The position numbers and the translations under genes are program-made. Source: Octopus vulgaris (lineage: Eukaryota). Taken from it: 64,000 nucleotides of DNA. Numbering within the stretch: the stretch's first letter is position 1; every line of letters begins with the position of its first letter. Below the pieces are notes generated by a model. It saw only the letters and a list, made by a program, of their open reading frames with translations, had not been told where the DNA came from and made no database searches. Where the stretch lies: NCBI GenBank assembly GCA_951406725.2, contig OX597824.1:30938001-31002000 (forward strand), written 5' to 3'. This document shows, piece by piece, positions 11,135-58,329 of the stretch.

Positions 11135-11251
11135 ATGGAAATCAGCCGATATACTTGTCTATTTTCTCTTCTTCTCCCACTAGTATACAGCATAACCAAT
11201 AGTTCACCAGCAAAAGTGTCTTACTTTCACCGAAAAAATGTTTTCTCGCAT
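11135..11251 (+). CDS. Exon 1 (signal peptide plus short N-terminal segment) of putative secreted galectin-like gene, copy 1
   Basis: gcaATGG start; MEISRYTCLFSLLLPLVYSITNSSPAKVSYFHRKNVFSH (39 codons, hydrophobic core); strong donor CAT|gtaagt at 11252, phase 0; paralogous exon at 49148 keeps ATG, frame and donor. Confidence 0.7.
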
Positions 11252-12271
11252 GTAAGTTTTGATATACCAACACTGGATGTAAATAGACTGAATTCTTTTC
11301 ATTTTAATTCTTATAAATTATTTTATAGATTTCTAGCTTTGATTCGGTTCCAGTTATATATATCATATAATATCATAATTACTGATATGCATAGAATCAT
11401 TGTGTTTCGGGGTATTCCTTCCCGGTCCCCATTACCAATTCATGTCTATATATATATATATATATATATAAACATGCAAACATATATGCATGCACTCACG
11501 CACAAATATATATAGAGGCAATTGACGATTATTCAGATAGACAAATTAGATGTATCAAATATTATAACAGTTCGGATATGAAATACAAAATATGTATATA
11601 TGTATGCATGCAAAACGAGAGTAAAAAAAAATTGGAGAAATTCAGTCAATGAATATTTAATAATAAATACGCAGATATTTACTTTAATAGATCTAACTTA
11701 CATACAGTAAAGATGACAGACAAAAATTAAAGTGTCAGGAATAAAGGTTTTATAATTCCAGCAACTGTTGGGCGTATAATACCTTTCTTCCAACCCTTTA
11801 ATTTCCTCTGTCGTTTGTTCTCTGTGTAAGTTGTATCTATTAATATTAATATCTGTCTATTTATACTTAAATATTCATAATCTGAAAGTCTTCACTTCGC
11901 TTTCTCTCGTTTTGCATGCATACATATATACATATTTTGTAGGTCATATCAAAATTGTTATATTTAATACTTCTAATAACTGCCTCTAAATCTGGTCAAC
12001 TTTATTACACGTTTAGTCATTGCTTACCCCGTGGAGAGGGTTTCCTTTAAATACATCAGTGTATGTTTGAATCATTTGAGCACAACTAAATGTTCTCCAT
12101 AGTGAGAATCTCTGGGTCTCATCTATGGATCACACACACACATACAGGCATATATATATATACATACTTTCATACATACAGGTACACACACACACACACA
12201 ATCACACACACAAAAACACATATATATATATATATATATATATATATATATGTATTCACACACACACACAC

Positions 12272-12580
12272 TCGAGGGGTGTTCATTAAAGATTTCCCTT
12301 GACTCACTTCCGGTTATTGCCGGATACGGAACTCAAACAGGTCTTGACAAGTAAACATACTTGTCTCTAGATGTCACATTGTAAATTGCAGCTTTCCACT
12401 GGTATTCATCCGTCTGTTATGGTTGCTGAAATGGACTAAGGTATTATAATGGAGGAAGTTGAATGCACATCCGCGATCAAGTTCTTATACAAGAAAGGTC
12501 GTACACCAAAATAGATTTTCGATGAAATGAAAGAAGCTTTTGGGGATGATACACCATTCACACGACGTAGTCAATCACCG
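12272..12580 (+). mobile_element. mariner 5' fragment (paralogue ~50260-50565)
   Basis: CGAGGGGTGTTC terminus; MEEVECTSAIKFLYKKGRTPK*IFDEMKEAFGDD HTH start. Confidence 0.7.
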
Positions 12581-13032
12581 GCATCACTGGATCTCACTCA
12601 TAAGGTATTGGAATCTTACATTGGGTATAAACTCTATAATTGGAAGGAGCCATTTTAAATTCTGTTGGATTTTACCCATAGGGTATTGGAAATTTACATA
12701 TATACCATTCTGCCTAAAAAATGGATCTATAACTTCAATATTCCTACATATCTTACATCTATTTTCTTTTCTCCACCCCACTCCCTATTTTGTATCCTCT
12801 CACACCGTCTCCGATGACGTGATATGATTAATAAATATCCTGCAAACCTTCTATCTATAAATGTTCTATCTACATAACCTTGGTTTTTATCTCATTACGC
12901 AAAAGATTCTTATATATATATATATATGTGTGTGTGTGTGTGTATGTCTGTGTGTGTGTGTGTGTGCGTGTATGTATGTGTGTGTGTGTGTGTATGTCTG
13001 TGTGTGTGTGTGTGTGTGTGTGAACATGTATG

Positions 13033-13320
13033 CTACGGCACAGGCATTGATGTTATTTCTATTTTATATAGTTTGACGGTACCTGTGGCAGCTTGGAACT
13101 GAAATCTTCTGAATAAACGTATATTTTCAGGTTTTGTGGAATTCCAACACCTCACTTTGGAACTTAGGCAGTTAGCTATGGAGATAAATTTTGAAATGGT
13201 TATTGGTAGGAATTTATAACCCAGATGGAGCTCCTGAAAATTCCTATTTTCTTTGGCACAGATGTTCTCTTTCTGACTAAGCTTTAATATAATACGTCGA
13301 CTGCTTTTGGGCAAGCCATT
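13033..13320 (-). mobile_element. 3' fragment of an RLE-type non-LTR retrotransposon (paralogue ~51210-51500)
   Basis: KENI..LGYKF(EF)LPI...KPE..RLFRRFQFQAATGTVKL resembles an RLE C-terminus. Confidence 0.5.
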
Positions 13321-55175: not shown

Positions 55176-55854
55176 TTCGTCCTTTAATTGGAGTAATTTC
55201 CAAAAAGATTTCTAACATTGTTTCTTCATATTTTACTTTGAATTTCCTAGTGTAAATTAGCATAGATATAAAATGTCATATAGATATATTAAGTAAAAGA
55301 TTTAACTTATTAAACAAATTTCAAAAAATTCATTCATATTTTACGTAAACGGAGGAGATTAGATGTTAATATGGATTATGTTTATTTTATTCATGTAGCT
55401 ATACGATCGATTCGACCAAAAAGGCATTAATTTCATTTTAAAAATCTGAGTTGTCAAAACGTGCTGGTCAGTAGCCTAAAAATAAGAAAATAGCTAAAAG
55501 ACATTATAATTACATAGGTATGGTGTTATTACTCCTTTTGTAATGTGTTATTGTTCTTGGAGTCATGTCTATTTAAACTAGACTAAACGATAACACTTGG
55601 GTGCTGATATATATAATACTAATAAGGGTAATATACTCTCAATAGATTTGTATAAAGGAGCTAATTTAAAACTCCCATATATGAAGTAAAAAAAACTGGT
55701 GAGACAGTATTTTAAGGAAAAGACAAACCAAATAAGGAAGTAAAGGATTATGTAATACTAGAGACTAGGATATATGTTTAACCATCGATAGGTTTAGTAA
55801 TTAATTAGAAAAAAGTGCTTGAAAGTAACCATATATGGTTTCTGGTTTATAAAA

Positions 55855-56185
55855 TTAATAATTAGAATAGGAGAGTATTGTAGTTCGCTTGAAGCATAGT
55901 GTATTGTTTGTAATGAATCGTCGAAGGGCAAGGAAGTACGAGGGTAGATGTATGATCTTGATGGTGTTGGGAATCATGTTGATTTTTAAGCAGCGTTTAA
56001 GAAAGTTTATTTGGCATCCGATTTTTGCACGTTTCTCAGACAGCTTGATCAATTCCCTATCGGTCGCGAACTCGGCCTGGCCCAGGCGTAGAGATAGGAG
56101 AGTATTGTAGTTTGCCTGAAGCATTGTGTATTGTTTGTAAAGAATCGTCGAAGGGAAAGGCTGCGGAAACAGGATGGTAGATGTA
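55855..56185 (-). mobile_element. Penelope-like ORF N-terminal fragment with internal duplication
   Basis: KIGCQINFLKRCLKINMIPNTI motif; direct repeat of about 70 bp at 55868 and 56095. Confidence 0.5.
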
Positions 56186-58246
56186 TGTATAATTAAAATG
56201 ACTTGTAAATATTATGTCCAATTTTTACAGAAAAAGTAAGTGTAATATTACGGATCTATGAAGTGGTAGACAGTTAATAAGACAAAAATAAAAATAAAAA
56301 ATAAAATTTTAAATAAGAATTAAAAATAAGAAATTAAAATTTTTGAAGACGCGAGAAAATTTATTTACATTATCCGCTGCTAAAAACATATATAATATCT
56401 ATGTATATAAAATATATATAATATCTATGGAATGGTGTGGAAAAGTTATATTTAATAATAACGTAAGCAGAGGAGTATAATTGTGGTGGAATTAGAGTTA
56501 TATGTAGTGTAGGGGAGATAACAATTAAGGGAACAAACAGTAGCCTTATATTTTCTATATCTATAAAACAGTCTTTTGACGAAAATTGTATGCACATTTC
56601 GCTTTGACGGTTAATGGTGGCACACCCGAAGCTAGGAACGTGCTGAAAATTAGCAGGGATATTAAATGCGTGGTTTGGATGAGAGCCGCGACGGTTAAAA
56701 TTCGCAAATTATAAAGATGTGGTTGCTTTGGCAAAAAGTGAGTTTTTATCGATTTTATAGAGCCCCTCTAGGTTTGTGTGATTGGCTTTTAATGCCCAGC
56801 GGCATGCACTGCAGGCTGTTGTGCTTCATAAACATACATTTTGTCGCGAAATTCCGGCTTCTACGAAACGATTTTTCATTGTGAAAAAACGAGTGCGTTT
56901 TGAACCTCATTTTCTTTTTAATCTTTTTATAAAAGTGAAAGGATTTCGTCCATTTATTTCTGTTGTCCACTTACGACGGTGATTCACTTGACTAGGAAGA
57001 CTATACGTGATGAATATCCAATACCAAACTAACTTAATCTACATATTGAAACTGCATTAAACTTTGGCAAGCTTACCTTTACCTATTCAGAGTTATTTGA
57101 AAGGTGATGTTTCCTTCCCTCTCTTCTGATTGTTGATACCTTTTTTTACCTTGATACCGTTGTTTGACTTTACGGATGCTTCTTTACCCAGCCATTATGA
57201 TATTTCGAGTGCTGTCCATTGTTTCAAATAGCAACTTAAACTGTTCAAAGGACAGGTGTGTTTGCTAGTCTATTTACATAAATATAAAAAGAAAAAAAGT
57301 AAATAGATTGACATCGTGTGTATATGGATGTACACGCAAAAAATTATTTGTCATACATAACGTTATACGCATAAATAATTATGCGTGTACATCCGGTACA
57401 ACCATGTGTGCATATACAAACGATTTTTGTACATAGAAAAATAATTCACTGATAAATAATTACGTATACATATATACATGCATACATACATACATACATA
57501 CATACATACATACATACATACATACATACATACATACATAAATACATACATGCATATATACATACATTCTGCATGTATGAATATGGTCAGACATATTGTT
57601 GCACTTGAATGTATGTCTTTGTGTCGTGTGTTTACATGTACGTTTGTGTAATGTATATGCGAGCGCCTGGATATGTGTACATGTAATCCCGACAAACTAG
57701 GATTCCATATACCCACGTCGTAAGAATTGACAAGTGCACTGTTATATGTATATAATGCAAAGGTGGATGAAAATATCAGAATATTATATTCCTCGAGCAA
57801 CAAAATAATTAGAATTAAAAGTTTTTCAGACGTAACTGTGAGGAGGCTATATTGCTCTTCGGATACCAGACTCTGTAGAAATAATCTATTCATTAGAGGA
57901 TGTCTTGTGGAGAGTAAACAGTCGTTCCATGAACAGCATATCTAGAAAATTACCTCTGAAAACATTCACAAGAAAATATATAAATCACTAATGAACGATG
58001 TGCTTGCAATGATCAATTCAATCAATTCACTTCTTAAGTAAAGTTCAGTGTCACAGTCAGTATAAGTGCTTTAGTATCATTATAGGAATACATGAATACA
58101 TTTTTCGGTTTACCACGAAGTACATTTTTTTTTGTCGCATGTTATCTGTTTACAACTATTTCGTAACATTAAATGTAGGAGAACTCTGTTTAAAAAAAGA
58201 TGCCAATCATTGTTTACATAGCTTACATCATTTCTATTATTTACAG

Positions 58247-58329
58247 ATGCATAGATTAATTATGGAATTACCAAGACGCAGCCGAATGTCTGTGATAGTT
58301 AAGGCCATTCCAAGATCACCTTGTCTCAG
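58247..58329 (+). CDS. Exon 2 (first strands of galectin CRD), copy 2
   Basis: Acceptor tttctattatttacag, donor CTCAG|gtaaca; 83 nt, phase 0 to 2; MHRLIMELPRRSRMSVIVKAIPRSPCL(R) resembles the galectin (G)MSxxIKGxP...R segment; final AG joins the leading A of the central exon to give Arg before LTINL. Confidence 0.7.

Follow-up and report, generated by a model that had tools for sequence, protein, structure and literature searches.

A family of tandemly duplicated genes that begins within a 64,000-nucleotide (nt) window of the Octopus vulgaris genome (contig OX597824.1, positions 30,938,001 to 31,002,000) joins a galectin-fold domain to a leader exon resembling the first exon of a neighboring p24 gene, TMED10. 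Taken as a whole, we consider it probable that the leader derives from TMED10 and that the family encodes secreted, fast-diversifying recognition proteins, likely of host defense. The parts of this account carry different weights. Capture of the leader exon from TMED10 is close to certain in our estimation, export of the predicted proteins by the classical secretory route is very likely, and the lectin domains diverge under positive selection. An earlier sequence-only reading of the window had proposed a tandemly duplicated galectin-fold gene with a classical signal peptide. That interpretation is supported by the analysis described here, although it missed the breakage of copy 1, the partial loss of canonical sugar-binding residues, and the origin of the leader.

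Gene structure and family extent

Each intact gene consists of a leader exon followed by a galectin domain divided over three exons, with open frames of 168-169 residues in copies 2-5. Two of the five tandem copies start in the window, where self-comparison shows a unit of about 38-45 kb that is repeated with roughly 89-98% identity. Positions below 1 or above 64,000 are extended window coordinates, to which 30,938,000 is added to obtain the position on contig C11 of assembly G000. The three exon types with canonical splice sites and compatible phases that had been recognized earlier hold up, and all four exons concerned (the two leader exons, exon 2 of copy 2, and the central exon of copy 1) carry AG/GT sites at the positions below:

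49050..49147, + strand: copy 2 promoter and 5′ region, sharing homology with sequence upstream of TMED10; GCCACGT near 49091, stop codon in frame at 49124, putative transcription start
49148..49261, + strand: copy 2 leader exon, 114 nt, phase 0; predicted signal peptide; homologous to TMED10 exon 1; spliced to 58247 in run X1
58247..58329, + strand: copy 2 exon 2, 83 nt, phase 0 to 2; first galectin-domain exon, carrying the first conserved Cys; exons 3 and 4 lie beyond the window
11135..11251, + strand: copy 1 leader exon, 117 nt, phase-0 donor; predicted signal peptide and short spacer; in-frame stop 24 nt upstream
20172..20177, + strand: copy 1 deletion junction (only four exon-2 matches in the genome)
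25766..25964, + strand: copy 1 central galectin exon, 199 nt, phase 2 to 0; open, but out of frame with the leader
30264..30374, + strand: copy 1 terminal galectin exon, 36 codons and a stop
16075..16310, + strand: decayed extra TMED10-like promoter and exon 1 inside intron 1 of copy 1; score 58, start codon ATA
3868..4156, + strand: remnant of the terminal exon region from an older, decayed copy, frameshifted; its leader lies upstream of the window (about G000:C11:30922070)

A galectin exon had been expected about 1 kb past the window end, and one does follow position 64,000, at extended 65358-65556 (G000:C11:31003358-31003556). With this central exon of copy 2 found, the gene model is no longer stitched across two paralogues. 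A terminal exon that the earlier reading missed is present in 5/5 copies, and for copy 2 it lies at 67678-67788 (G000:C11:31005678-31005788). The claim of a duplicated gene stands for copy 2, which is intact, but not for copy 1 (11135-30374), which lacks exon 2, is frameshifted, and stops after 45 residues. The deletion removed about 4.9 kb, corresponding to about 54436-59325 of copy 2 and including exon 2; three open-frame phase 0-to-2 candidates for a replacement occur in the copy 1 intron, none of them like exon 2. The last two exons of copy 1 have kept open frames, and compared with copy 2 they show 20 nonsynonymous changes against 0 synonymous ones. Exon 2 thus seems to have been lost recently, and its absence may be polymorphic.

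The two junctions proposed for copy 2, 49261^58247 and one from 58329 to a galectin exon, were both recovered as loose ends of sequencing-run contigs, in one RNA-like run, X1, of four examined. On exon 2, X1 coverage falls in exon bins only (4/30; four runs examined). Upstream of 58247 the loose end reproduces the final 30 nt of the leader exon of copy 2, and downstream of 58329 it reproduces the first 9 nt of exon 3 (junction 58329^65358). Neither of the refuting outcomes open to examination came about: the leader exon is joined to 58247, and a galectin exon follows the window. On the leader, where four runs were also examined, X1 shows the copy 2 leader junction again from the other side, together with a copy-5-type contig that has the corresponding leader junction and a copy-4-type leader contig. 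Runs X3 and X5 give genomic-type cover, with contigs that read through both introns flanking exon 2. We count three outcomes as blanks and not as evidence: neither exon 2 nor the leader drew contigs from run X2, the leader drew none from X10, and X7 covered just 49020-49149.

Public gene models bear on the same structure. The Octopus sinensis protein XP_029643127.1 ("galectin-4-like") joins the four exons predicted for an older paralogue, P7, and, up to an alternative C-terminus, departs from that prediction at 1 of 193 residues. Copy 2 itself is represented publicly (CAI9729906.1, Octopus vulgaris, here P0004) by a truncated protein of 83 residues that leaves exon 3 early. Protein database searches with the central exon and with a five-exon alignment (398 candidates) returned no longer homologue; the P7 exon as query found one among 10 candidates, and a representative search gave 14 matches, P0004 and 13 longer multi-stretch proteins, five of which were examined.

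Genome searches returned five central exons, six leader matches, and four exon-2 matches, all in one region. The leaders of copies 3-5 lie at extended 92051, 130736, and 180227, and two older paralogues flank the tandem copies. P6, upstream, has its leader at extended -140019 and an intact 164-residue frame with a shortened central exon, and P7, downstream on the minus strand, spans extended 245555-227718. The idea of a lineage-specific family with a leader exon is thus borne out by five copies, two older paralogues, and an Octopus sinensis model of the same layout. The decayed copy represented by the relic in the window (last exon at about 3940) has its leader at extended -15930, and its exons 2 and 3 were not found by blastn. 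Runs X3 and X5, labeled as two other organisms, contain several exon-2 variants at window 57900-58700, and some of these match copies 3 and 5; close relatives therefore probably have the expansion too. None of the genome matches of the leader, exon 2, or central exon is an intronless copy.

Some details of the older paralogues and of the wider genome were recorded alongside. The P6 central exon is about 160 nt (L026:5981-6121; extended -89507) and lacks the Trp-containing strand pair, with the frame and both cysteines intact. A 15.27-kb block holding P6 exons 3 and 4 (G000:C11:30844300-30874850; extended about -93700 to -63150) is duplicated at 99.9-100%, either a very recent duplication or an assembly artifact. 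Intron 1 of P7 (extended 241835-243257, minus strand) contains reverse-transcriptase-like reading frames with a YADD motif, likely a fragment of a long interspersed nuclear element. The other galectins of the genome are one four-domain gene and two two-domain, tandem-repeat genes, at G000:C11:33137088-33162704, C11:55165957-55205921, and C3:144465404-144488435.

The leader exon and TMED10

The P7 leader, used as a query, matched extended 280042, which is exon 1 (280042-280221; G000:C11:31218042-31218221) of an intact TMED10 (p24) gene 216 kb past the window. The gene was identified by a PF01105 (GOLD/p24) match from residue 22, a match to the solved TMED10 domain from residue 21 (E 2.8e-12), and further exons downstream; the profile and the solved domain start right at or after a V-Y-S motif. 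P0016, the P7 orthologue, is 45% identical to TMED10 exon 1 over 49 residues, reaching beyond the signal peptide into the GOLD codons. At the DNA level, the P7 and P6 matches to TMED10 span upstream noncoding sequence, the start codon, and GOLD-domain codons, and that of P7 runs almost to the donor, with shared context. Scores against TMED10 were 136 for P7, 118 for a decayed copy at 261767, 100 for P6, and 46-56 for the other six leaders; dinucleotide shuffles reached the score in 0 of 1000 trials in eight of the nine cases and in 1 of 1000 in the ninth, with maxima of 47 (P7) and 40 (P6). Two other p24 genes score 24-29, which is background level. For copies 1-5 the link to TMED10 rests on a chain, from the copy 2 leader region to P6 (156) and from P6 to TMED10 (100), plus positional agreement. 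An earlier background control (maximum 72) had included family copies and was replaced by a background of 2000 windows and a scan of 660 kb, which found about a dozen more decayed copies of the promoter and exon 1 unit plus a few unrelated matches at 46-55.

TMED10 is conserved across eukaryotes, which argues that it was the donor. P7 lies head to head with it, 35 kb apart, and retains the most of exon 1 in the family, as expected if P7 were an early product of the capture. Common to TMED10 and the family are the promoter, the signal-peptide exon, the cleavage motif, and the first GOLD codons (best in P7). Only exon 1 is shared, and the family has no complete GOLD domain, coiled coil, or membrane anchor; PF01105 finds no match in the three family leaders scanned, residues 1-51 of P0016 are predicted at a local distance difference score (pLDDT) below 50, and only the neighboring TMED10 gene qualifies as a p24/TMED member. 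A genome search with the DNA of TMED10 exon 1 returned that exon alone. We rejected the idea that the leader was carried by a dispersed transposon, since 12/12 genome matches of one decayed copy lie in a 0.3-Mb region.

The decayed copies of the promoter and exon 1 (G000:C11:30799300-31200000) lie at extended -138692, -123951, -115630, -114454, -110461, -100312, -44740, -22370, -9745, -432, 16075, 135703, and 261767, and most have lost the ATG or contain early stops. Two in intron 1 of P6 (-115527 and -114351) still have an ATG and an open frame together with a weak phase-0 donor, and might serve as alternative first exons. In TMED10 and the family leaders alike, GCCAC(G/A)T occurs 45-60 nt upstream of the ATG (window 49091-49107), with a TCAGT- or CCAGT-like word after it. 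The first may be a CREB3/CrebA-type site and the second an initiator. CrebA controls p24.1 (PMC3003312), and the sections available of that source do not spell out the motif. Elsewhere on the contig, a p24-family reading frame that occupies a single exon and includes a hydrophobic leader (G000:C11:49252237-49252767) is possibly a retrocopy.

The family leaders have the features of signal peptides, an N-terminal hydrophobic core (2.5-2.8 on the Kyte-Doolittle scale over 10 residues in copies 1-5) and small residues at -3 and -1. M1, E2, and V-Y-S are invariant in 7/7 aligned leaders, and V-Y-S ends where mature TMED10 begins. A genomic in-frame stop lies 24 nt upstream of the leader ATG in 4/5 copies. 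The invariant motif and its position make cleavage of copies 1-5 after residue 19 likely. The cut after residue 26 favored by the sequence-only reading was set aside, its motif not being common to the members.

The galectin domain and its divergence

The central exon scores 25.8 bits against PF00337, above the cutoff of 22.1; all five central exons exceed this cutoff, and P0016 reaches 67 bits. The predicted structure of P0016, the one family member modeled, has a mean pLDDT of 72 and 11 strands arranged as a two-sheet β-sandwich, with helices outside the domain, and a fold search gave galectin-3 and galectin-8 as its best PDB matches (E about 1e-11). The family therefore shares its profile and β-sandwich fold with prototype galectins (PF00337; human galectin-3 and -8) and its three-exon domain (phases 0-2, 2-0, 0) with the ordinary galectins of the genome. 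It differs from the prototypes in its leader exon, a Glu to Gln change, an eroded H-x-N-x-R motif, a Cys pair, and strong positive selection.

Several canonical sugar-binding residues are altered. The Glu of WGxExR is Gln in 5/5 copies, and His-x-Asn-x-Arg reads x-x-Asp-x-Arg, with the His lost in 2/5 copies and the Trp lost in one. By the motifs of PMC13084444, as far as that source was available, 4-5 of 7 binding residues are kept when the central Asn is aligned as in galectin-3 and 3-4 of 7 when it is aligned as in mollusc galectins; the conserved set (H-x-N-x-R, N, W, E-x-R) is incomplete in the copies. The portion available of PMC7723164 reports that human galectin-1 loses its lectin activity with E71Q. 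Substitution of Asp for Asn in the first motif is also seen in 3/8 ordinary galectin domains of the genome, so alone it need not disable binding. Binding of the ordinary lactose type has likely been lost or changed, and we class the family from its sequence as galectin-like and not as proven galectins.

All members with exon 2 (6/6) carry a pair of cysteines, one at the exon 2 end and the other following the FPF motif. The pair occurs in 0/3 ordinary domains of the genome with an aligned exon 2, and the nearest ordinary domain has the second Cys only. Galectins are typically without native disulfides according to the text available of PMC13084444. The exon 2 Cys and its partner are conserved together in P6 as in the tandem copies. 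Because the two positions presumably fall on neighboring loops of the fold, a disulfide between them is plausible. In phylogenetic trees the family groups with the C-terminal domain of a tandem-repeat galectin (support 94/94 in a first tree and 85/86 in a second, from which copy 1 and two half-filled domains were omitted). In both, its closest ordinary relatives, at moderate support, are the C-terminal domains of cephalopod tandem-repeat galectins (G000:C11:55.17-55.21 Mb; Argonauta hians GAB1607484.1), and the galectin part of the family probably came from such a domain. The gene at C11:55.17-55.21 Mb shares with the family the second Cys and a similar end of the terminal exon. The tandem-repeat galectins differ in having two domains and the canonical Glu, and the Argonauta protein is without a hydrophobic leader.

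The lectin domains diverge under positive selection. A nonsynonymous excess (P<0.05) is found in 10/10 copy pairs, which are not independent, and the ratio of nonsynonymous to synonymous divergence (dN/dS) is 2.0-7.6 in the nine pairs with dS >0, the remaining pair having 20 changes against 0. Divergence between copies is 13-24% in the domain and 3-6% in the flanking introns. Among copies 2-5, 77/130 domain codons are variable, with 51, 47, and 26 variable columns on codon positions 1, 2, and 3. A one-ratio estimate of omega for these copies is 4.58 (twice the log-likelihood difference from omega 1 is 26.0), to be read with the small number of sequences (four), possible gene conversion, and AT-rich codons in mind.

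Proposed history, alternatives, and significance

We propose that a local duplication placed the TMED10 promoter and exon 1, with its phase-0 donor, before three galectin domain exons with a phase-0 acceptor. This chimera would have been duplicated repeatedly, leaving intact genes, the broken copy 1, and many decayed leader copies. The TMED10-derived promoter and leader would send the protein into the endoplasmic reticulum (ER), where signal peptidase would cut after V-Y-S and the two cysteines would form a disulfide. The secreted product would be a basic protein of 17.6-17.9 kDa, made up of a short spacer and the galectin sandwich, and could bind copy-specific ligands, its surface tracking foreign ligands as they change.

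Several observations weigh against this account. The splicing evidence rests on X1, a run of low depth that is RNA only by the tool's guess, and a run search found no matching run on record as RNA. In the best tree the leader-bearing domains are not one clade (p-AU 0.106 in the approximately unbiased test when they are held together), and the C-terminal-domain origin has long branches and an alternative that is not rejected (p-AU 0.105). A proline sits in the hydrophobic core of 4/5 leaders, the public copy 2 model is leaderless, and the most upstream X1 leader contig starts at 49140, 8 nt before the ATG, with no loose end and short of the in-frame stop at 49124, so that an upstream exon is possible. 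These last three points would fit a leader that is translated but does not work as a cleaved signal peptide, the product being cytosolic, membrane-anchored, or begun in an unseen upstream exon. We find this quite improbable, since the exon derives from a genuine signal-peptide exon and has kept the cleavage motif in 7/7 cases, and its first 57 nt differ between copies at 2-4 positions only while the domain diverges. Moreover, the hydropathy of the leader over 19 residues is at most 1.43, under the usual guide of 1.6 for a membrane anchor. The direct scores of copies 1-5 against TMED10, 47-56, fall within the background tail (13/2000 random windows at 46 or more), as they might if the likeness to TMED10 exon 1 were convergence of hydrophobic AT-rich sequence; many, though not all, of those background windows are further decayed copies of the same unit. 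Convergence was already unlikely and is hardly credible when the P7 and P6 matches take in noncoding DNA, the start codon, and GOLD codons, P7 shares the donor context, other p24 genes score at background, and the matches of a decayed copy are confined to the region. That the copies are functionless decaying duplicates or assembly artifacts is likewise very improbable. The broken copy 1, the many decayed leaders, and the near-identical 15.3-kb P6 block could be read that way; against this stand intact frames in 4/5 copies and both older paralogues, an omega well above 1, the extent of domain divergence, the spliced forms, and the exon-2 variants in runs of two other organism labels.

The alternatives that remain concern where a secreted family would act, and the odds we attach to them are judgment, not data. 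Rapid adaptive divergence is common in reproductive recognition, and the omega among copies 2-5 would suit a role in sperm-egg, spermatophore, or oviducal-gland recognition. A galectin-3-labeled transcript, which may or may not belong to the family, rises at fertilization in the Octopus maya oviducal gland in the portion available of PMC8976471. The divergence described here, however, lies among paralogues in one genome with birth and death of copies. That pattern is more typical of defense families, and we consider a reproductive role unlikely. Small, basic, Cys-bearing, expanded, and selected secreted proteins are also the usual pattern of venom genes, and the predicted pI of 9.4-9.9 from residue 20, the signal peptide, the Cys pair, the tandem expansion, and the positive selection would all agree with salivary or venom components. 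A search for literature combining galectins with the cephalopod posterior salivary gland listed papers on hemocytes only, and we rate this possibility as rather unlikely, on a par with any role beyond defense, reproduction, and venom. For host defense itself we would put the chance at a little under even. As a tentative further step, the family may be a young, cephalopod-specific one in which a galectin left the leaderless route through capture of the TMED10 exon and gave up galactoside binding in exchange for a hypervariable surface braced by a disulfide.

Galectins normally have no leader and bypass the ordinary secretory route. Those with a signal peptide are uncommon and are reported from the sponges Chondrilla (hRTL) and Geodia and from nematodes, six in C. 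elegans and eleven in Strongyloides ratti, in the text available of PMC11433124 and PMC13084444. Like the octopus family, these proteins combine a single galectin domain with a leader, and hRTL cleavage was confirmed by Edman sequencing; unlike the octopus family, hRTL-P1 and -P2 retain their binding residues along with the ability to bind galactosides, and no cysteines occur in hRTL-P1. The same portions of these sources give no donor gene for the leaders, whereas the octopus family is molluscan and its leader can be traced to TMED10. In mammalian cells galectin-9, which has no leader, is loaded into secretory vesicles with help from TMED10 (PMC12059159), and TMEDs affect the release of galectin-1 and -3 (bioRxiv 10.1101/2025.05.04.652080), in what was available of both. 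That a gene with this role in mammalian galectin export should be the leader donor here may be a coincidence. The galectin-related plasma proteins (GREPs) of snails carry immunoglobulin domains before the galectin domain, which the octopus family does not have. In the text available of PMC8995041, Biomphalaria GREPs bind parasites and differ between strains. For the squid Euprymna, the available parts of the sources recover two galectins only (PMC10844198) and report a hemocyte galectin (PMC3349304). Our own literature search, in which subscription papers were largely missing and transcriptome supplements could hold annotations, found no cephalopod signal-peptide galectin and no TMED10 exon capture.

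Why galectins avoid the ER is a standing question, one that Kutzner et al. in 2020 reportedly address. Here the leader donor is an identifiable neighbor, and a series of paralogues allows the changes accompanying ER entry (the key Glu lost, the Cys pair gained) to be placed in order. The public copy 2 model, leaderless and truncated, misses this strongly selected and predicted secreted octopus family. If the account is true, the family would be a clean example of gene birth by capture of a promoter and signal-peptide exon, with the donor gene, an intermediate paralogue, decayed leaders, and broken and selected copies all still readable within half a megabase.

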